Both the position numbers and the translations under genes were made by a program. From the NCBI GenBank assembly GCA_965261545.1, contig CBDHDF010000010.1, positions 768,001 to 832,000 on the forward strand: 64,000 nt of DNA, in the 5' to 3' direction. This document shows, one piece after another, positions 8,006 through 58,417 of the stretch. The notes below the pieces were generated by a model. It worked only from the letters and a program-made list of their open reading frames with translations, was not told the origin of the DNA and made no database searches. This stretch comes from Bdellovibrionales bacterium. GTDB taxonomy: Bacteria > Bdellovibrionota > Bdellovibrionia > Bdellovibrionales > UBA1609. The first letter of the stretch is position 1; every line of letters starts with the position of its first letter.

Positions 8006-8254
8006 AGAGAGAGGTATATCTAAGAGTCAATGCCGTTTCCTTAAGAAAAATCTCTTGAAATTATTAGATAAATCGACAAGAATAAGACTTGTTTTATTTT
8101 ACACCGGGACTGTAAAAATAATTGTGTAACTGCAATTTTTTTCTTAAATCTTAAAGCCACTTATGTGGCTCCACTCCTGGTAAAAAGCACAGTCCCATAT
8201 TATTCGTCAATGTATAATTGACATTTTTTCCTTCAAGCGATTTTGTCAGTCACA

Positions 8255-8407
8255 ATGCATTATAAGTTAATGGGGAGGTGGACATCTTCGCTGGTCTATA
8301 TAATTGGCCTCTTTAGTTACTCTGGACTTTTGATTGTATTATGGAGCCGTAATGGGATCATATCAGAACTGGAAAGAACTCAAATAAATAATTATCATCT
8401 TGGTTGA
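8255..8407 (+). CDS. Putative 50-aa single-TM peptide in the IS256 tail
   Basis: MHYKLMGRWTSSLVYIIGLFSYSGLLIVLWSRNGIISELERTQINNYHLG. Below the ORF-track cutoff; no homology evidence. Confidence 0.35.
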   Translation: MHYKLMGRWTSSLVYIIGLFSYSGLLIVLWSRNGIISELERTQINNYHLG

Positions 8408-8431
8408 AAAAAAATCAGCAATGGCTCTCTC

Positions 8432-8624
8432 AAAAAAATGGAAATTCCAATCTCATCAAAGGGTTCATGTGTTTAGGTTCCCATACTATATTACCCCCTT
8501 TTTTTTATTTTTTTTAACTTAGGATATTCGAGAAATACCAGAATTGGGATGAAATATGAAAAAAAATGGGAACCCAAATCTGCACCAAGAGGGCATGTAT
8601 TTAGGTTCCCATACTATATTACCC
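8432..8624 (-). repeat. Two ~65-nt hairpin + poly-T units (8559-8624, 8432-8496)
   Basis: Shared 31 nt (plus strand catgtRtttaggttcccatactatattaccc). On the minus strand each closes a stem starting atgggaac and ends in T7-8. Confidence 0.75.
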
Positions 8625-8631
8625 TAACCAT

Positions 8632-10048
8632 CAATGCCGTTTCCTTAAGAAAAATCTCTTGAAATTATTAGATAAATCGACAAGAATAAGACTTGTTTTA
8701 TTTTACACCCAACCCTCAACCAAGGAGTAAGTCACATGCAATCCAATATTGATCTCGAAAGCCCCCAAATGACGAGTTCGCGTCACAGATGACCATTTTA
8801 TTCTACCAAAACTTGATTCTTCCTTCAAGCCAGAGCACCTTGTCGATCCAGAAAAACAAAAAAGGAATCGAAAATTTAATCCTCAAATTTTCTTTTTTAC
8901 CATTATCTATCTTATTTCCGGAACAAATTACGAAGGCTACCAAATCGCTCTTAAGACGGTATGGACTCATTTTGGTGACCTGCTTCTCATGCCAGTCAAA
9001 AGCAGTCTCAGCAAGATACGTCAAAGTATTTCTTACCTATTTTTCAAAGATATCTTTGAATCTCTGATTACAGACTACGAACCATTGAGAAAAACGTTTC
9101 ATGGTTTTTATATCTATGCCATAGATGGCGACCAATTAGCACTTCCTCGCTCTAAAGATCTTTTAAAGGAGGGTTATTGTGGGTACCCTTGCCCAAATGA
9201 GATGGAAACTCATTTCTTACGTATGTATCTATCTCATGCTTATGACGTTTTATCGGGTGTGACAAAGAATCTTTGCTTTTCTCCCGCTCTCAACGAAATC
9301 GCCAATGCTATTCAAATGATAGGTAGTTTTGAGAGTAATAGCATAACTCTCTACGATAGGCTTTATTTATCTACAGAGATTATTAAGGCCCATGCTCAAG
9401 CCAGTAACTTCTTTATTGCGCGTTGTAAGCGAGGCTCTACTTTTATCCCCATTGTAAATTTATTTAATGGCCCAGGTTGGTATTCACGAATGGTTATTGA
9501 GGGGGTGGTCATTCATCTCTATAAGTATAAAAACCCAAAGACTGGGGAGTTCTCTGTTTTGGCCACTAATCTTCCGCATGGCTCCTTGGACAAGAAGGAT
9601 ATGGTTGCTCTTTACTCTCGTCGTTGGGAAATAGAAACGACATTTCGTGATTTTACATCGACAATGAAAATGGAGCAGTGGCACTCAACAAGCCTTAATG
9701 GAATATTGCAAGAGCTGTATTCTTATTTTTGGCTCTTCAATTATACAAAGATTCAAATGAGCATAAATGAGGATGAAGACAGTGTGAATCAGTTGGTAAA
9801 AAATGACTACAAAAAACCTAACTTTAAACTGATTCTTGATTTCATAATGGATAGCATCCCTCTTTTTGTTGCGGGGCTCTATCAGAAATTTAGGAAGCAG
9901 ATAAAGTTGCTGATGAAGATTTCAATGGAGAAGAGGAGGCACTTCAAAAGAAGCTATGAAAGGTCTATCAAAAGGGCTGGGAGTTCTTTTAAAAGAAATA
10001 GCTTAACGCAGAGGCAGAGGGGTGTGGTGGCTTAAGGAAACGGCATTG
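8632..10048 (+). mobile_element. IS4-A, complete 1417-bp copy
   Basis: Same IRs; 11-bp TSD accctaaccat at 8621-8631 and 10049-10059. Confidence 0.95.
8989..10035 (+). CDS. IS4-family transposase (frame is open from 8773)
   Basis: AIDG, YDR and YxxRWxIE motifs. Confidence 0.92.
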   Translation: MPVKSSLSKIRQSISYLFFKDIFESLITDYEPLRKTFHGFYIYAIDGDQLALPRSKDLLKEGYCGYPCPNEMETHFLRMYLSHAYDVLSGVTKNLCFSPALNEIANAIQMIGSFESNSITLYDRLYLSTEIIKAHAQASNFFIARCKRGSTFIPIVNLFNGPGWYSRMVIEGVVIHLYKYKNPKTGEFSVLATNLPHGSLDKKDMVALYSRRWEIETTFRDFTSTMKMEQWHSTSLNGILQELYSYFWLFNYTKIQMSINEDEDSVNQLVKNDYKKPNFKLILDFIMDSIPLFVAGLYQKFRKQIKLLMKISMEKRRHFKRSYERSIKRAGSSFKRNSLTQRQRGVVA

Positions 10049-10146
10049 ACCCTAACCATAGTCTCGGTATTCCAGTACTTCTGTCAACGCCTTAGAGGGG
10101 CTTTTAAGCCCCCTTATAAGGCAGGTGGTGGACCTTATTAAAAAAC

Positions 10147-11349
10147 TTAGTTGTCAAAACGGTCACCGTATTCAATGGCAAACCTGTTCATGGCTGGCTT
10201 CCAGTTGTGTAATGGTCGTGTCCATCGCTTAGAGGCCATTTTTATCGCTAAATATACAACTTTTAAAGCCGACCGATCACTGGGAAATATCTTACGATTT
10301 CTGATCGCCTTGCGGATCACGCTATTTAACGACTCTATGGCGTTTGTGGTATAAAAAATCTTTCTGATTTCATCCGGATAATCGAAAATAGTGATGAGAT
10401 TGTCCCAATTCCTACGCCAAGACTTTTCAATATTCGGATACTTTGAAGACCACTTGGTACAAAATTCCTCAAGGGCCTTTTCAGCTTCTGTCAGAGTCGT
10501 AGAGCCATAAATGGACTTGAGGTCTTGGGCGACAGCTTTCATATCCTTGGAAGGAACATAGCGAAGGGAATTGCGGACCATATGGACAATGCACAGTTGT
10601 ACTTTAGACTTGGGAAAAGCCGCTGAAATGGCTTGAGGAAAACCTGTAAGACCATCTACAGAAAATATAAATACGTCTTTCAACCCTCGATTTTGCAGCT
10701 CAGTCAAAACACTCAACCAAAACTTTGAACCCTCATTTTCAGAAATCCATAGGTCCAACAAGTCTTTCTGACCCTCCTCTGTAATACCAAGAGCTAGGTA
10801 AATCGCCTTATTAATAACTCTCTTGTCTTGATGGACCTTCACCACGATACAGTCCAAAAATACGATAGGGTAAGTGCTATCCAAGGGGCGGTTCTGCCAA
10901 GCCGTAACTTCATCAATAACAGCATCCGTCACGTTGGCTATCACTGAGTGGGATATCTCTGCACCATGGTAGAGGTCTTTGATAGCTCCTTGAATATCCC
11001 TGGTCGTCATTCCCCTCGCATAGAGGGTCAGAATACTGTCTTCAAAGCCCTCAAGACGAGTCTTGCCTTTGGGAATGACTTGGGGCTCAAAGGAGGCACT
11101 TCGGTCACGGGGGACCTGAAGCTCCACCTCGCCTTTCTCTCCCTTTATGGTCTTTCTACTGTAACCATTGCGAGTGTTGGATTTGCGGGTCTCAGACTTC
11201 TCATGCCTCTCATAACCTAGGTGATCGTCCATTTCCGCATTAAGAGCTGTCTCTAAAACAACCTTCATCAGTTGACCCGTTATGTCGGATAAATCCTTTT
11301 GGGTCTTGACGTTCTTCGCTAGTTCCTTGCCTATTGTCTTGATATCCAT
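10147..11349 (-). CDS. IS256-family transposase
   Basis: RNGY, VPRDR, YPIVFLD, QLCIVH and TTNAIES motifs. Confidence 0.95.
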   Translation of the reverse strand: MDIKTIGKELAKNVKTQKDLSDITGQLMKVVLETALNAEMDDHLGYERHEKSETRKSNTRNGYSRKTIKGEKGEVELQVPRDRSASFEPQVIPKGKTRLEGFEDSILTLYARGMTTRDIQGAIKDLYHGAEISHSVIANVTDAVIDEVTAWQNRPLDSTYPIVFLDCIVVKVHQDKRVINKAIYLALGITEEGQKDLLDLWISENEGSKFWLSVLTELQNRGLKDVFIFSVDGLTGFPQAISAAFPKSKVQLCIVHMVRNSLRYVPSKDMKAVAQDLKSIYGSTTLTEAEKALEEFCTKWSSKYPNIEKSWRRNWDNLITIFDYPDEIRKIFYTTNAIESLNSVIRKAIRNRKIFPSDRSALKVVYLAIKMASKRWTRPLHNWKPAMNRFAIEYGDRFDN

Positions 11350-11709
11350 TTTGCCTTCTCCTTTCAGGATGATAGTTCATCCTAATATGATTCGGCAGTT
11401 ACACAAAATAGTTTACAGGCTCTTTACACCCAACCCTCAACCAAGGAGTAAGTCACATGCAATCCAATATTGATCTCGAAAGCCCCCAAATGACGAGTTC
11501 GCGTCACAGATGACCATTTTATTCTACCAAAACTTGATTCTTCCTTCAAGTCAGAGCACCTTGTCGATCCAGAAAAACAAAAAAGGAATCGAAAATTTAA
11601 TCCTCAAATTTTCTTTTTTACCATTATCTATCTTATTTCCGGAACAAATTACGAAGGCTACCAAATCGCTCTTAAGACGGTATGGACTCATTTTGGTGAC
11701 CTGCTTCTC

Positions 11710-25053: not shown

Positions 25054-26989
25054 ACTCCCCGGACACAATAGACAACTTTTCCATTGAAATTTCCATAAAT
25101 ATATATAATCATTCACTTTATGCAATTGGTCGTAAATATGCTCGCTATCGTTGGCATCCACCTGAGGATTCTTCCCATTTAGCTTCGAACCATAGTCAAA
25201 GGAATGATAATGGCCCACCAAACAAAACATCAAAATCCATGGACAGCTCAGTTAAAAAGTGTCTATCAAAGCGACCAAGCCACACGGGTTCAACAGACAT
25301 ACGAAGTTGTTGTTCCAAAAATAAAGAAACAATTAAAGCAGAAAGTAAAACAACAGAAAATAATGGAGGTTAAAAATGGAAACATCAGTAGCTCTTTATT
25401 GTCGAGTGTCCTCAGATAAACAAGCTCAAGAGGGAACCATTGATTCACAGATTTCTAGTCTTCACGATTTCGCTAAGGAACACAGCTTTTGTGTAGAGGA
25501 GGATCTTATATTTACGGATAATGGTGTGAGTGGTGCCACCCTTGTTCGTCCTGCTTTAGACTCCCTTCGCGACAAAGCTTTTTCTGGGGAGGTTACAAAG
25601 GTACTTGTGTTATGTCCAGACAGATTAGCTCGTAAATATGCCCATCAATTGATTCTAATTGAAGAATTTCAGAGGCTAGGTGTTGAAATTATTTTTTCTA
25701 ATAGAGATATTACAAATTCACCCGAAGATCAGCTTTTGCTACAAATACAAGGAGTCATTTCAGAATATGAAAGAGAAAAAATTATGGAAAGAAGTCGAAG
25801 GGGTAAACTTCAAAAGGCTTCTAAGGGCTTTGTTAGCGTTTTATGTGGAGCTCCCTATGGTTATATATATATTCCGAAAGCAGACTCCGCTGACGCACGA
25901 TATGAGGTCCATCCAGAAGAGTCTAAAGTTGTTAAAGATGTTTTTCAAATGTATTGCCGAAACAAACTAAGTATTAGAGCAATTGCAAAGGAATTAAATA
26001 TAAGGGGGGTGCCTACTAAAAAACAACAAGGTATTTGGGAGCGTTCAACTGTTTGGTGTATGCTTAAAAACCCCGCTTATTATGGACAAGCTGCTTTTAG
26101 AAAGACTATCCAGGTAGAAAGGTTGCGTCCAACCAAGTTAGCAAGAGACAATAATTTTTATCCAAAAAATCCTAAATCAAGCTCTTCCGATCGAAATAAA
26201 AAGGATTGGATATATATTCCCGTTCCATCTATAATTTCTTCAAAAACTTTTCAAGATGCATCCAGTCAATTGGAAACTAACAAAAAACTTTCCCCTCGGA
26301 ATAATAAAAAATATGAGTATTTGTTAAGTGGTCTTTTACGATGCAAAGAGTGTGGTTATTCGATCTATGGCAAACCCGCTTCTAATTCAAGGTATAAGCG
26401 TTGTTATTATCGCTGTATGGGACAAGATGGTCATAGATGGCCAGCTAAAGGTAGAGTTTGCTCATCTCATCCCGTAAGAGTTGAAGTTTTAGATGACTTA
26501 GTTTGGGAACAAACAGTTAAATTACTTGAAAATCCTCAGGCAGTTATAGATGAGTATACAAATAGAATTCATGAGCAAAAAGGCCAACAACAATCATTGG
26601 AAAAATTAATTGCAAAAAAGGCTCAGGAGATTCGTCAAATAACACATGAAAAGGAACGTCTCTTGGATCTTTATCAAAATGGAACTCTAAATCTATCAGA
26701 AATAGAGTCACGATTAAAAAAAATAAGAGGCAAAATAAAGCAACTTGAAAATGAAAAGCAATCTTTAGAGTATGAGCAAAGGCAAGAAGGACAACAATTA
26801 CAGCTTGTAGATCAACTCCAAGAATTCCAAAAAAAAGTGAGTGCCAACTTAAAGGTATTGAGTTTTGAGCAAAAAAAGGAGATTGTAAGGCTACTGGTAA
26901 AGGAGGTTGAGCTGAACATTAAGACAAGTGAAATTGTGGTTCGACACGTTGTGCCAACATCCAAAAGTTTGCCATTGTGTCCGGGGAGT
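25054..26989 (+). mobile_element. IR-bounded large serine recombinase element
   Basis: Perfect 16-bp IR actccccggacacaat / attgtgtccggggagt, extending imperfectly to 27 bp. Confidence 0.85.
25204..25419 (+). CDS. Small ORF upstream of and overlapping the recombinase
   Basis: 71 aa, inside the element and co-oriented with the recombinase. Confidence 0.45.
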   Translation: MIMAHQTKHQNPWTAQLKSVYQSDQATRVQQTYEVVVPKIKKQLKQKVKQQKIMEVKNGNISSSLLSSVLR

Positions 26990-39056: not shown

Positions 39057-41039
39057 TACCCTAACCATAGTCTCGTATTCCAGCATTTCTCAACGCCTTA
39101 GAGCCCTCTTATAAGGGGACCTTATTTATTAAAAAACTTAGTTGTCAAAACGGTCACCGTATTCAATGGCAAACCTGTTCATGGCTGGCTTCCAGTTGTG
39201 TAATGGTCGTGTCCATCGCTTAGAGGCCATTTTTATCGCTAAATATACAACTTTTAAAGCCGACCGATCACTGGGAAATATCTTACGATTTCTGATCGCC
39301 TTGCGGATCACGCTATTTAACGACTCTATGGCGTTTGTGGTATAAAAAATCTTTCTGATTTCATCCGGATAATCGAAAATAGTGATGAGATTGTCCCAAT
39401 TCCTACGCCAAGACTTTTCAATATTCGGATACTTTGAAGACCACTTGGTACAAAATTCCTCAAGGGCCTTTTCAGCTTCTGTCAGAGTCGTAGAGCCATA
39501 AATGGACTTGAGGTCTTGGGCGACAGCTTTCATATTCTTGGAAGGAACATAGCGAAGGGAATTGCGGACCATATGGACAATGCACAGTTGCACTTTAGAC
39601 TTGGGAAAAGCCGCTGAAATGGCTTGAGGAAAACCTGTAAGACCATCTACAGAAAATATAAATACGTCTTTCAACCCTCGATTTTGCAGCTCAGTCAAAA
39701 CACTCAACCAAAACTTTGAACCCTCATTTTCAGAAATCCATAGGCCCAACAAGTCTTTCTGACCCTCCTCTGTAATACCAAGAGCTAGGTAAATCGCCTT
39801 ATTAATAACTCTCTTGTCTTGATGGACCTTCACCACGATACAGTCCAAAAATACGATAGGGTAAGTGCTATCCAAGGGGCGGTTCTGCCAAGCCGTAACT
39901 TCATCAATAACAGCATCCGTCACGTTGGCTATCACTGAGTGGGATATCTCTGCACCATGGTAGAGGTCTTTGATAGCTCCTTGAATATCCCTGGTCGTCA
40001 TTCCCCTCGCATAGAGGGTCAGAATACTGTCTTCAAAGCCCTCAAGACGAGTCTTGCCTTTGGGAATGACTTGGGGCTCAAAGGAGGCACTTCGGTCACG
40101 GGGGACCTGAAGCTCCACCTCGCCTTTCTCTCCCTTTATGGTCTTTCTACTGTAACCATTGCGAGTGTTGGATTTGAGGGTCTCAGACTTCTCATGCCTC
40201 TCATAACCTAGGTGATCGTCCATTTCCGCATTAAGAGCTGTCTCTAAAACAACCTTCATCAGTTGATCCGTTATGTCGGATAAATCCTTTTGGGTCTTGA
40301 CCTTCTTCGCTAGTTCCTTGCCTATCGAGTAGGCAGTGGGAACTTCCCCCACTGCCCCTCACAGAACCGTGCTTGAAAGTCTCCCCTCACACGGCTCCTA
40401 TGATTTTCCGTTTCATTAGGCTCCTCCTCAGCATAACCAAGTTGGCCTGACTACTTCCATAAATCATGTGACCCCTTCGCTCCATTCTCATTACAAGAAC
40501 TTCATCACTACTACGAATCACTCTGCCCCTGGTTGGTGGCATCGGTATTTAGCACTTCGGGGGTCTCCCTTATAGCGTTTCCCTTATCATCCACCAGCAG
40601 GTTCCCACGTTCCGATACGAAGCCTGTACTAGGTTCATGCCCCCTATACACCGCACGCCGTCTAGATCGGTCATCAGGCTTCCTCTAGACTTATCCCGAC
40701 GGAGACAACCTTCCTTCGGTTTTGACGCGACTGTTAATCTTTCGATGCGTCGTCGGTGGGTTTGCTTTCGCTCATCTCCCTAGTACTTACATGACCGTTT
40801 ACTACGGCCTTTTCCTTGCTCGCTCACTACAAGGGCCTTGCCTCCCATGCAGCAGCAAGGTTGTTTGCACTCAAATCCTGAAATCCGAGTGCGGAGGACC
40901 TACCTCCATCTTCACATCAGCATGTCACCTCCGTGACTTCGTGGCACACATTGTCTTGATATCCATTCTGCCTTCTCCTTTCAGGATGATAGTTCATCCT
41001 AATATGATTCGGCAGTTACACAAAATAGTTTACAGGCTC
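39057..41039 (-). mobile_element. IS256 copy 2; transposase 40966-39138 split by a group II intron; tail truncated
   Basis: Near-identical to 10147-11422 apart from the intron; IR ends at 41039. Confidence 0.93.
40324..40949 (-). ncRNA. ORF-less group II intron, 626 nt (IIB, class D-like)
   Basis: GUGUG start; DV gagccgtgtgagggGAGActttcaagcacggttc; DVI ending ctactcgat. Removal restores the IS256 sequence exactly. EBS1-like GUUGUC pairs with the exon end GACAAU. Confidence 0.93.
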
Positions 41040-42639
41040 ATTTTGTAAGGTGGGCCTCACAAAGATAAGTTAAAAAGCATAGAGTTAAATGTCCAATAAT
41101 CCTCTGGTCTGTCCAATGGAAAACAGGACGTGTTTTCAAAGTCCCTTTTAACTCACCAAAAGCATCTTCAATTTTCCACAATTCTTTGTAGTTGATAATA
41201 ATCTCATCTGCCGTCAAGTCTTTGACATTTGTAAGGACGGCAAAAAAACCATCAATTTTTTCATCTAATTCTATTTGTTCTGCATTTAATTCAGGTTTTT
41301 TATTTTTGTCGTCAGCCATCTTTACATATTTCTTATAACCTTTATTGGAAACAAAAGTACTAGACTGAACACCTTTAGAAGATAGTTTTCCTTCGATCTT
41401 TTCAAGAAGGGATTCTCTAGATTTTTTATCTCTCTCTGCTCTTTTCCTAGACCAAGTCACAATACATCTATGCCCCCCATGGTCTGTTTCGTAAACAGCA
41501 AGCTCATTCTCATATACCCAGCTAAAACGATTTAAATCATAGACCTCTTGTTTCTTTTCTTTTTTTAAAGATCCAAGCTTCATACCAACAATAAACTCGC
41601 TTTGATCCTCACTGAGTTTGTCAGTATTAGCCTTTGATAAAAGCCCCCTATCAGCCACAAAAATGAAACGGCGTACATTAAACTTTTTTCTCATTTTATC
41701 AACAATATCTGAAAGCGTCTTGCCTTCAAAAGTATTACCAGGGAAAACCTCAAAACCTAAAGGGATGCCATCCCGATTCACCAACAAACCAAAGACAACT
41801 TGGGTGCAGTCTGATCGTCTCTCTTTACTATAGCCAAATTGACGAAGTTTCCCTAAGTCTGTTCTTGTACTCTCGAAGCGTAAGGTTGTTAAATCATACA
41901 ACACAATGTCTACTTGGAAATTAAATAAATCTCGCCCCACCCAATAAAGCGAGTTCTCTATTTCATCCTTATGGGAGGCAAGTAAGTCCATAGACCGATA
42001 AATATGCTGGAGACTCAAATCACCCTTAATCATGTCTGGGTAAAAAGATTTTTGCCAATACTCAAAAACCTTTAACTTGGAACTAGGAGCAATAAATCGG
42101 CTGGCAACTAAGGTAAAAATCACCTTACATAAATCAAATTGAACTTTCTCATGAGAATCTTTTATGTCTTTGAGGGTCTTATTGATACCCAGTTGATCAA
42201 ACAACTTTTGTAAAATCAGCAAGGGACCCAAAATGAAAGTCTCTTCGATGTAAAGCTCCTTAGCCAATTGACTCACAGTGAGAAGCTCTCGGTGGCGGGA
42301 TACGGCCTGCGCCAAACTATTAATCTTATCCTCTCCTCCTTCTCCAGCCTTACCTAAGGACATGAGCATGCGTTTTTTGGATTTGCCTTTTTCTCTGTAG
42401 GACTCCACAAGGTGGTAGTAGCACTGACCTTTTGAGTTTTTAGTCGTTTGGATGTACATGAGGATATTTTCTACATATTTCTATGATATATCAATATTTA
42501 AAACGATAAAATCCTATTTTGTTTTCTACACTTTTTTTACGTCAATTTTAATTTTTCCAGCAGCTACCATTATATTTCAGTACAACCCCAATTTCTGGAA
42601 ATTTCGCATTTTAACGCAGATGCTGCTGTCAAACTCGGG
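41040..42639 (-). mobile_element. IS1634-family element, transposase 42459-41040 truncated by IS256
   Basis: YDLTT, FGYSK, VADRG and LWKIEDAF motifs; stop codon created at the junction. Confidence 0.88.
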
Positions 42640-54230: not shown

Positions 54231-56784
54231 CAATGGCATTCGTTTTTGCAGAAGGTTTTTCCACATTTTTCTGACTCCCTCTAACATACTGAGTTAAGGG
54301 GGCTTTTATCTTTTTTCTTTTTCCGAAAAAAAATACTTGAGTCCACCCCATCGTTGTGTCACATTATATTTGAACCATTCCCAAAGGGGAGAGACTCAAA
54401 TGGACCCACGCATAGAGACATTGCCTTCAACAACTTTTTTTGGAAGACGCTTGACGCGCAAGCAAATTGCCGACATTCAAAAGACGGTGGCGCTATTTCC
54501 TTCTTTAAGTCGCCGTGAACTGGGTTATACAGTTTGTGAACATCTTGGTTGGCTAACTCCCAAAGGTGATCATCGCATCCAATCGTGCCTTCGTATGCTT
54601 GAGACGCTAGAGGAACTTGACATTCTATCCCTGCCAGAAAAAGACATGTCAAAGCGGAGTGTCCCCTCCAAAAAAATCACTTGGACACACCGAACAGATG
54701 AAAAGCCTCTCATCAACGATAAACTAGACTCATTGACCCCACTTTCTTTGCAAATCGTAACTGATCAAGAGGCCATTAAGGAATGGAATGAAGTTGTCGA
54801 TCGGCATCATTATCTCAATTACAGACGTCCCTTTGGTCCCCACTTACGCTATTTCATCTTAGATAATTGTGGGCGAAGATTGGGTTGTCTTTTATTTGAA
54901 GCTGGCACATCCACTTTGCCTTGCCGTGATGAATGGATCGGTTGGCAAAATCGAGCTTACAAAAAGCACTTGAATTTAGTGGTGAACAATAGTCGATTTT
55001 TGATCTTTCCCTGGGTAAAGGTTCGCCATCTTGCTTCGATGGCTTTATCTATGGCAACTCGCCAACTTCCCACAGACTGGGAGTTAAAACATGCTTTCAA
55101 ACCTGTACTCATGGAGACTTTTGTCGACCTTACCAAATTTAATGCCACGAGCTATCGTGCTGCCAACTGGCTTTATTTGGGCAAAACAAATGGGAGTCGT
55201 GCCTACAAAAATGTAAAGGGAAAAACTCAAAAAGGTGTTTATGTTCAACCTCTGACAAAGAATTATCAGTCTATCTTATTGAATGGCCCCCAATGCGCTA
55301 TCAAGAAACCCGTCGGGAAACCCACCATCAAGCCACATAAGAACTTGGCTGAGCCTATGCTAGAGGACTCTTTTGTGCATCTTTGGCAAAACATCATCAA
55401 GACAGTGGTTATCATTGCAGATGAGTACGACCGAACCTGGCAAAAGCGTCAACGTGTCTTGAATACATTGTTGATTATACTTTTCATCTTCCGACTTGTT
55501 TTCTCTAAAGGAAAACAAGGTTATGATACAACTTTGATTGAACTTTGGGAGCAGTGTCGCATATTAGACATTGAACTCCCTCAACCTAAACCAGTTCGGG
55601 CATCCACTATGTGTAGTGCACGGGCTAAAGTAGATGAAAATATATTTAAAGTTTTGCATGATGAAATTCTTAAACAAGACGGTATATCCAATTCTAGTAC
55701 CTTATGGAAGGGCCATAAGGTTTTCGCAGTGGATGGATCGAAAATAAATTTACCACGTCAACTCGTAGATAATGGGTATCAGCAACCATGGGAAAAAGCA
55801 TGGTACCCTCAAGGTCTTGTCAGTTGCCTGTACCAACTACAGTCGAAGATTCCTGTGGATTTTGATCTCTTTGCCCATAACAATGAGAGAAAGGCTGCAC
55901 AAACTCATTTCAAAAAATTGTTTGAAAACGATGTTGTGGTTTATGATCGTGGCTATTATTCCTACGAAATGCTTCATGAGCATAAGGTGCGAAGTCTGCA
56001 TGCGGTGTTTAGGATAAGGAGAAATGCCAACACTGTTTTTGATGAATTTATTAATAATGATCAAAAAGACTCAGTGATCCAAGTCATTCCTAGCAAGCAA
56101 ATTCTGAAAGAACTACATAAAAAAAAGCCACAAGACGACTTCAAAGCCTACGCTTTGCGTTTGGTCAAATATAAAATTGGACAAACTACTTTTGTTCTAG
56201 GAACAACCTTAATGGATCAAAAAAAATATTCCATTGATGATCTGGCCAATCTCTATCATGGACGCTGGAGTATAGAGGAACTGTACAAAATATCCAAAGA
56301 ACTGATGACCATTGAAGAGTTTCATTCTCAAAGTGAAAGGGGAGTCAAACAAGAATTGTTTGCACACTTCACACTTATCACTCTGACAAGATTATTTTCC
56401 AACTACACGGAAGACCGTCTTAATACATCTCAATCCCATAGTAAAAAACAAACCATGCAGACAAACTTTAAAAACAATTTACTGACAATTGCAAGAAATA
56501 TTGAAGGTCTTTTTCTTCAACAAAAGGTAGTGCTTAGTAAAACCCTCAATTGCATCATTACAAATATGAAGACCTGCCGACAAAGGCTACGTCCGAATAG
56601 GCATTACGACCGAGTTTCTAGAAAACCCATCGGAGTATGGAGACCCAGTAAAGAGGTTAGGGGGGCTATGGCCAACGGATAATCACATGGATCAAAGAAA
56701 AAAACTTGGGGTTAGCCCACCCCCGAGGAGTTAGAGGTTCAAATCCTTAACCGAATGGGATCTCTCACTAAACGAATGCCATTG
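54231..56784 (+). mobile_element. IS4-family element encoding a DUF4338-transposase fusion
   Basis: IR caatggcattcgttt / aaacgaatgccattg; 10-bp TSD ccccaacccc. Confidence 0.93.
54400..56682 (+). CDS. DUF4338 (DruA-like) domain fused to an IS4 transposase
   Basis: HHYL..LRY..RDEWIGW..NNSRFLIFPWV..HLAS..ETFVD..YRAANW, then AVDGS, YDRGY and YHGRWSIEE. Confidence 0.88.
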   Translation: MDPRIETLPSTTFFGRRLTRKQIADIQKTVALFPSLSRRELGYTVCEHLGWLTPKGDHRIQSCLRMLETLEELDILSLPEKDMSKRSVPSKKITWTHRTDEKPLINDKLDSLTPLSLQIVTDQEAIKEWNEVVDRHHYLNYRRPFGPHLRYFILDNCGRRLGCLLFEAGTSTLPCRDEWIGWQNRAYKKHLNLVVNNSRFLIFPWVKVRHLASMALSMATRQLPTDWELKHAFKPVLMETFVDLTKFNATSYRAANWLYLGKTNGSRAYKNVKGKTQKGVYVQPLTKNYQSILLNGPQCAIKKPVGKPTIKPHKNLAEPMLEDSFVHLWQNIIKTVVIIADEYDRTWQKRQRVLNTLLIILFIFRLVFSKGKQGYDTTLIELWEQCRILDIELPQPKPVRASTMCSARAKVDENIFKVLHDEILKQDGISNSSTLWKGHKVFAVDGSKINLPRQLVDNGYQQPWEKAWYPQGLVSCLYQLQSKIPVDFDLFAHNNERKAAQTHFKKLFENDVVVYDRGYYSYEMLHEHKVRSLHAVFRIRRNANTVFDEFINNDQKDSVIQVIPSKQILKELHKKKPQDDFKAYALRLVKYKIGQTTFVLGTTLMDQKKYSIDDLANLYHGRWSIEELYKISKELMTIEEFHSQSERGVKQELFAHFTLITLTRLFSNYTEDRLNTSQSHSKKQTMQTNFKNNLLTIARNIEGLFLQQKVVLSKTLNCIITNMKTCRQRLRPNRHYDRVSRKPIGVWRPSKEVRGAMANG

Positions 56785-57677: not shown

Positions 57678-57816
57678 GCTCACTTCACCTCGACACACCT
57701 TGCTAATCAAAATATCACTCTCAACAACTTAAACTCAGTCAGGATAAAATCATAAAAATTGCTTCGAGGTCAAAGGAACCCATGAAAAGTCCGTCAAAAT
57801 AAAGTATTGGGTCACA
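57678..57816 (+). mobile_element. Second right end of the TG...CA transposon
   Basis: Matches 37353-37491 with one visible difference. Confidence 0.92.
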
Positions 57817-58072
57817 AACGCTATAAGGGAGACCCCCGAAGTGCTAAATACCGATGCCACCAACCAGGGGCAGAGTGATTCGTAGTAGTGATGAAGTTCT
57901 TGTAATGAGAATGGAGCGAAGGGGTCACATGATTTATGGAAGTAGTCAGGCCAACTTGGTTATGCTGAGGAGGAGCCTAATGAAACGGAAAATCATAGGA
58001 GCCGTGTGAGGGGAGACTTTCAAGCACGGTTCTGTGAGGGGCAGTGGGGGAAGTTCCCACTGCCTACTCGAT
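57817..58072 (+). ncRNA. 3' part of the ORF-less group II intron, copy 2
   Basis: Identical by eye to the reverse complement of 40324-40579; followed by the IS256 3' exon (58073-58180). Confidence 0.92.
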
Positions 58073-58417
58073 AGGCAAGGAACTAGCGAAGAACGTCAAG
58101 ACCCAAAAGGATTTATCCGACATAACGGGTCAACTGATGAAGGGTGTTTTAGAGACGGCCCTTAATGCGGAAATGGACGAATACCTCTCTGTAAATGCCC
58201 TTGTTTTAGGGTTGAAGTGTATATAGCATAACCCCATAATGTTCCTTGTTTTTCTCAAAACACATGACTAACCTTGGCGCAGCCAGAACCAAGAGCTAAG
58301 TCTGAAGTCAAGTCTTAACCCCTAAGTCTATCTCTGCTGTAATCCTATCTCATAGCTCTTCAGAGGTCGGGAATTAAATTACGTTCGAATTTTTCAAACA
58401 TAATGACAAGTAAGGAA

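Follow-up and report, generated by a model that had tools for sequence, protein, structure and literature searches.

The closest described relatives of the intron reported here are RmInt1 and RmInt2 of Sinorhizobium meliloti, multicopy class D introns of subgroup IIB which target the insertion sequences ISRm2011-2 or ISRm17, recognise their sites via EBS1, EBS2 and EBS3 and encode a reverse transcriptase (RT) of their own (PMC4615759, PMC5894124, PMC3035460, PMC4238363). RmInt1 forms lariats and almost no ligated exons (PMC3035460, PMC4238363), and it has been portrayed as a barrier to the spread of the IS that hosts it (PMC5894124). Upon exchange of components between RmInt1 and RmInt2, which are 72% identical, most heterologous protein-RNA pairs spliced and lost mobility (PMC4615759). 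Selection with RmInt1 gave only Watson-Crick pairs at EBS3, and retargeted RmInt1 forms tandems in which the initial G of the intron already present serves as the partner of EBS3 (PMC4075523). In tandems of EcKTE56.groEL, a specialised IIB1 intron, the second copy lies in front of the first one, and a U-G wobble links its EBS3 to the 5'-terminal G of the copy already in place (PMC12584367). A further described system comprises the TeI3 introns of Thermosynechococcus elongatus, among which copies with the ORF deleted from domain IV (DIV), DIVa kept and good EBS/IBS pairing outnumber the ORF-bearing ones; changes in the EBS retarget families, and driver maturases, close kin derived from one intron and equipped with an endonuclease domain, act in trans (PMC2882425). 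ORF-less mobile introns, IS targeting, EBS retargeting and tandem re-insertion have each already been published separately, and the use of IS256, a further IS, as a target lies within the variation to be expected. Judged by titles and abstract openings, none of the literature matches listed describes an IS256 transposase interrupted by a group II intron.

The window, i.e. the whole stretch of 64,000 nucleotides under analysis, comprises positions 768001-832000 of contig C10 of a 4.3-Mb assembly (11 contigs, among them C2, C4, C10 and C11; 96.8% complete). On visual inspection the 16S sequence of the host resembles those of Bdellovibrionota. It harbours a 626-nt ORF-less intron within an IS256 element (Table 1), and we designate the corresponding intron family F1. 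The intron begins with GUGUGC and ends with CUCGAU, in agreement with the GUGYG and AY termini of group II introns, and is matched by the Rfam families RF01999 (88.5 bits) and RF00029 (66 bits). Its predicted fold comprises the six domains DI to DVI (z = -4.2 compared to 20 shuffles), with the AGC triad present in DV and a bulged branch A at position -7 of DVI. These matches and the fold bear out the preliminary description, which had reported a 626-nt intron with intact ends, DV and DVI. By sequence and predicted fold F1 is a group II intron whose splicing is itself a prediction. As had been proposed, the EBS1 loop pairs with the exon end GACAAU at 6/6 positions. Together with the EBS2-IBS2 pairing and a single-base EBS3-IBS3 contact this corresponds to subgroup IIB, IIC introns being devoid of EBS2 (PMC4075523). 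A placement of EBS3 within the GAUGAUAAGG motif was discarded as this motif belongs to DII. DIV is reduced to 68 nt containing a hairpin, a Shine-Dalgarno sequence (SD) and an ATG; the ORF is gone while the DIVa-like hairpin, which may bind a maturase, is retained. The SD and the ATG had been noted before, along with a few codons. These codons call for a correction: the frame MKRKIIGAV* leads across the DIV basal stem (3' strand) and terminates inside DV, so that its status as an ORF remnant is unsupported.

Table 1. Coordinates of the intron, its IS256 host and related elements. Plain positions refer to the window, those with a prefix to the named contig of the assembly.
Feature	Position	Strand	Basis
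Intron of family F1, 626 nt, class D-like group IIB without ORF	40324..40949	-	Rfam match, fold, exon junction, alignment
Domain I, basal stem CCACG/CGUGG	40609..40944	-	MFE structure; RF01999 at 40790-40907
EBS2 (GAUU), pairs with exon -12..-9	40736..40739	-	exon pairing
EBS1 (GUUGUC), pairs with exon -6..-1	40704..40709	-	exon pairing
EBS3 = U, intron position 304	40646..40646	-	alignment column vs +1 base
Domain III	40475..40521	-	predicted structure
Minimal domain IV: basal stem AUGAUUU/AAAUCAU, DIVa-like hairpin, SD 40427-40421, ATG 40416	40400..40467	-	
Domain V, 34 nt, AGC triad	40364..40397	-	Rfam match and sequence
Domain VI, A bulge at -7 (40330); GTG at 40352 in frame and paired in the predicted fold	40329..40362	-	
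IS256 exon 1, ATG at 40966, IBS1 40950-40955, IBS2 40958-40961	40950..40966	-	
IS256 exon 2, rest of transposase (NF033543)	39138..40323	-	
Host IS256, left end 41039, cut at ~39057 by IS4-family element	39057..41039	-	
IS1634 transposase, interrupted by host IS256	41040..42459	-	
Second F1 copy, 3' 257 nt, 100% identical, 5'-truncated by 15-copy repeat	57816..58072	+	
IS256 exon 2 remnant, 108 nt, other haplotype (5 differences)	58073..58180	+	
Intronless IS256 copy 1, ORF 10147-11349, 8-bp TSD GGTGTAAA, later insertion inside	8106..11422	-	
R1 copy a, 5'-truncated at IS21-type end, two frameshifts	C11:344899-346167		
R1 copy b, insertion in ribozyme, 1.93-kb serine-recombinase element in ORF, premature stop	C11:874090-870416		
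F2 copies in high-copy repeat	C2:47908-47262, C2:910162, C11:1056592, C4:188023, C10:508798, C11:695142, C11:811574		

The host element is identified as an IS256 by its Mutator-type transposase (NF033543, 427 bits), its terminal inverted repeats and a length of ~1889 bp; an 8-bp target site duplication (TSD) is found at 37 of the 45 IS256 copies of which both ends are present. No right end of the host IS256 occurs within 15 kb, and its exons are identical to those of an intronless copy at C2:97822. F1 interrupts codon 6 of the transposase in phase 2. Without splicing, the reading frame ends after 13 codons; removal of the intron in silico yields, as anticipated in the preliminary description, a 400-aa ORF which starts with MDIKTIGKEL. 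The second F1 copy of the window was likewise recognised correctly apart from its first position, formerly set at 57817: it is identical over its entire length, shares the 3' junction and is followed by an IS256 exon showing five differences over its first 108 nt. IS256 copy 1 is free of the intron, again as reported. This copy has its left flank and its TSD in common with an IS256 at C11:520478 which carries introns in tandem, the two thus constituting an empty/filled pair within a repeated host element. Elsewhere in the window (54337-56682) a 781-aa ORF fuses a Druantia DruA domain to an IS4-type DDE transposase domain.

In the assembly F1 is present in ten uninterrupted full-length copies, eight of which are 100% identical, and in further copies split or truncated by insertions. 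Besides IS256, it occupies an IS1634 transposase gene (35 junction-spanning empty alleles), an IS3, where it lies antisense (22 empty alleles), a repeat at Rpn-like genes (20 empty alleles) and also single-copy sites. EBS1 and EBS2 of the main F1 form jointly pair at 9/10 positions with four out of six independent targets and at 7/10 with the other two, compared to a background at random genome positions of 0.3% for at least nine and 9% for at least seven pairs. The contribution of EBS2 amounts to three or four of four pairs at most sites and to one of four at the IS1634 site. Two F1 variants with altered EBS fit their own exons better than the main EBS would (10/10 vs 6/10 and 9/10 vs 8/10); in one of them, at C2:291100, EBS2 reads UGUU and the exon AACA. 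The EBS3 column of the alignment is complementary to the first base of the 3' exon in all eight introns compared. In F1 this base is a U which pairs with the +1 A of IS256 and wobbles with G both at the IS1634 site and at the tandem junction, while the target at C2:239521, having C at +1, does not pair with it. Such wobble use differs from RmInt1, for which only Watson-Crick pairs were selected (PMC4075523). Two head-to-tail tandems of F1 are found (C2:405046/405672 and C11:524997/525126). They may have arisen because EBS3 = U would accept the first G of a resident F1, a pairing equivalent to that in the EcKTE56.groEL and RmInt1 tandems (PMC12584367, PMC4075523). In contrast to the specialised IIB1 groEL intron and the engineered RmInt1 tandems, however, those of F1 are natural, ORF-less, class D-like and located in IS256.

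With its many copies at distinct sites and its good EBS/IBS pairing F1 resembles the TeI3 introns, with which it also shares the ORF-less majority, the deletion of the ORF from DIV, the retained DIVa and the retargeting by EBS changes; its mobilisation in trans, however, is something we infer (PMC2882425). A second ORF-less class D-like family, F2, is present in the same assembly (~69-71% identity, EBS1 CGGUAG, EBS3 A, U at +1 of every site) and has an unusual CGUGUC 3' strand in its DV. At C2:463512-464144 the DI of F2 is joined to DII-DVI of F1 in a chimeric intron, and at C2:494623-494891 an F1 variant shortened to 269 nt by an internal deletion has an altered EBS1 and retains both ends.

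The F1 ribozyme is colinear with those of RmInt1/RmInt2-type introns (59-62% identity over DI-DIII). The nearest ribozymes belong to ltrA introns carried by plasmid NZ_CP045303.1 of Azotobacter salinestris and plasmid NZ_CP099646.1 of Paraburkholderia fungorum, identical at 66-67% over DI-DIII; unlike F1 they keep their ORF, and they are too distant to represent its parent. A plasmid of Methylomonas sp. AM2-LC (CP157007.1, locus L023:2446-3098) carries a class D-like intron without ORF that reaches 64% over the same domains, and local identity to the nearest relatives amounts to 69-71%. Although those of its nearest relatives that possess an ORF have class D RTs, F1 itself offers no RT to be placed in the class D clade, no tail motif and no domain composition devoid of an endonuclease. 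Since it has no ORF, its class derives from the RNA only, on the basis of which F1 is a class D-like IIB intron of the RmInt1 lineage. A parent intron was found neither in the assembly nor in 60 related genomes, where a single 41-nt DV match occurs (in G029), nor among plasmids, where identity over long stretches reaches at most ~70%. A DVI-specific F1 pattern has 0 matches in metagenomes, and among the matches listed for two DV patterns (at least 111 and at least 123 stretches) the best long ones are identical at ~70-76% and contain no parent. ORF-less relatives of F1 are common elsewhere: of loci with both DIII and DV, which are not independent of each other, at least 39 have less than 250 nt and at least 23 more than 1100 nt in between. 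Several Bacteroidota or metagenome loci (L070, L073-L076, L089, L150, L153) contain a number of introns with DV matches, spaced a few kb apart at most and in many cases lacking an ORF.

As F1 has no ORF, a maturase would have to be supplied in trans, as the preliminary description had suggested. A Pfam RT search of the assembly gave 30 matches which resolve into four intron RT families (R1 to R4) and two other RT types. In the RT tree R1 groups with RmInt1/RmInt2-type RTs (support 97/96) while R2-R4 fall outside, and it carries the class D tail motif LX3AX3PXLF[V/A]HW (PMC4615759) with C in place of the first L. It is the sole class D maturase of the assembly, which (at 96.8% completeness, in 11 contigs) contains no intact one, both long R1 copies being broken (Table 1). 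The R1 ribozyme is only ~57-59% identical to F1 and F2, at ~59% too dissimilar to be the parent of F1, and R3 and R4 were dismissed as parents on account of their other RT clades and different DV. The ORF-containing cognate for which the preliminary description had proposed a search was not encountered in the assembly, only a distant and broken maturase of the same class. This differs from TeI3, whose helpers are close kin (PMC2882425).

The condition of R1 was further assessed in DNA contigs of four sequencing runs (X1-X4) from one sample, from which the assembly itself may derive, so that they are not independent of it, and of a run from another sample (X5). The frameshifts of R1 copy a are present in no contig of X1-X4 and are therefore likely to be assembly errors, although contigs can drop variants. 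In X2, X3 and X4 the R1 ORF is joined across the recombinase insert, one 1215-nt contig of X3 bridging the insert site, and X4 contains a stop-free allele. X3 and X4 also show an IS21-free 5' continuation of the R1 ribozyme beyond the insertion point with a motif absent from the assembly, whereas X1 covers R1 partly and X5 the flanking repeats only. These contig pieces fit an uninterrupted R1 allele; being unphased, they could belong to two alleles, each of them broken on its own. As the helper, R1 is the best candidate, or else a parent intron which was lost or not assembled, the latter being about as likely as R1.

Taken together, F1 most probably (we estimate roughly 0.8) is a non-autonomous class D-like IIB intron that has retrohomed independently into codon 6 of several IS256 copies and into other mobile elements by means of a borrowed maturase, and that cripples its hosts. 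What is observed comprises the anatomy of the ribozyme, precise sites with empty alleles, complementarity between EBS and target, the scatter over haplotypes and the breakage of invaded copies. By analogy to class D biology, a borrowed RT/maturase would bind the retained DIVa hairpin of the F1 RNA and assist its excision as a lariat. The lariat would then reverse-splice into DNA recognised via EBS1, EBS2 and EBS3, and the same RT, acting without an endonuclease, would copy the inserted intron.

Independent homing has to be weighed against a single ancestral insertion carried along by IS256 transposition and gene conversion, with the tandems produced by recombination with circular intron DNA. 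F1 or its 5' part is present at 8 of 67 IS256 left ends, two of which share a flank and may represent one event. Each of the five long intron-bearing IS256 copies (at least 1000 nt) is separated by 0-1 nt from an intronless copy and by 2-13 nt from the other four, and no two of them have a haplotype in common, contrary to what an IStron-like unit replicated to new sites would show. On the IS256 tree, calculated from the 52 of 71 rows that reach 1000 nt (recombination ignored, the 19 rows below this length excluded), intron presence requires five changes, and a single clade of intron-bearing copies, which the preliminary description had named as contrary evidence, is rejected (p-AU 0.000345). 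Since every invaded IS256 has an intronless twin and the invaded copies do not form one clade, we consider the insertions to be independent, as had been suggested for a recent spread of the non-autonomous intron into IS256 variants. The IS256 haplotypes do look mosaic, so that conversion could also scatter the intron among IS256 copies; the F2/F1 chimera at C2:463512 demonstrates that intron copies recombine, and the lack of an intact same-class maturase in the assembly likewise speaks for passive carriage. Yet conversion within IS256 cannot account for sites outside IS256, and passive carriage explains neither the precise insertions, with flanks that match the EBS, into IS1634, into IS3 and at single-copy sites nor the co-variation of EBS and exons. 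Moreover, exon polymorphisms differ within ~20 nt on either side of F1. Along with the rejected single clade, these observations render a purely passive spread very unlikely.

The preliminary description proposed that F1 makes the output of IS256 transposase dependent on splicing, with the GTG in DVI allowing a bypass. F1 is indeed sense-oriented in IS256, its removal restores the frame, an intact ORF results in 3/8 invaded copies, and the GTG is in frame. Nevertheless, 59 of the 67 left ends are intron-free, 43 of these with an intact 400-aa ORF, and the bases of the GTG have a predicted unpaired probability of 0.00 inside the DVI stem. A regulatory role is also at odds with the different haplotypes of all five long invaded copies, with the antisense location of F1 in IS3 and its presence at non-IS256 sites, and with the scarcity of ligated exons reported for RmInt1 (PMC3035460, PMC4238363). 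We hence regard both the gating of transposase output and the bypass as very unlikely. Contiguity over the full length is preserved in only one of the eight invaded IS256 copies, compared to 44 of the 59 without intron (Fisher p = 0.0012, with the two copies that share a flank counted individually); in three further invaded copies a right end with matching TSD lies beyond later insertions, and no invaded haplotype has been amplified. The invaded copies thus appear to be dead ends, older than the latest IS256 burst, and F1 is likely to cripple the IS256 copies it enters rather than to regulate them. Such a state matches the poor exon ligation of RmInt1 and the block it imposes on its IS (PMC3035460, PMC5894124, PMC4238363). 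The same age relation bears on the source of the maturase. If an intact maturase from outside class D mobilised F1, it would be one of R2 (463 aa, two copies), R3 (435 aa, one copy) and R4 (495 aa, four copies), the only uninterrupted intron RTs of the assembly, and the F1 copies are very young in sequence. These RTs fall, however, outside the class D clade, and exchange between class D introns as similar as 72% already abolished mobility in most cases (PMC4615759). In addition, invaded IS256 copies which look older than the latest burst fit a helper that has since failed. Help across classes is accordingly very unlikely.

Returning to R1, we tentatively put forward, as a possibility on the doubtful side, that F1 and F2 lack any parent and are both driven by this distant, promiscuous maturase, whose availability would vary within the population through knockouts by IS21 and the serine-recombinase element. 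R1 would then be far more relaxed than the RmInt1 and RmInt2 proteins, and its state would set the restraint which the mini-introns exert on IS256 and other IS. Mobilisation of both families by R1 would widen the known promiscuity of maturases and provide a compact natural pair of intron and driver for studying the origin of general splicing factors. Irrespective of the helper, F1 represents a clean natural parasite of parasites, a 626-nt intron that targets the most abundant transposons, is retargeted by EBS changes and stacks in tandem, although its significance is modest.

Further observations concern the remaining RT-encoding elements. The 1.93-kb large-serine-recombinase element with terminal inverted repeats (window 25057-26986, C11:871161-873090 and others) is inserted in full length into the RT genes of R1, R3 and R4, and one of its ends precedes an R2 fragment. 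The R2 introns (C11:346168, C10:511248 and C2:263415) follow 5' exons ending in CUCGAU or CUCGGC, the motif that closes class D introns at their 3' end; one lies directly behind the 3' end of R1 and one antisense in F2. A truncated R2 variant ends at the IS256 exon 2 junction, probably as a result of insertion at the 3' end of F1. Outside R1-R4, one unassigned RT is encoded at C11:1009752-1010654, while another, at C4:59374-60435 and C4:362-961, displays a GLPIG...SQ / YMDD pattern which we take to resemble that of diversity-generating-retroelement RTs.
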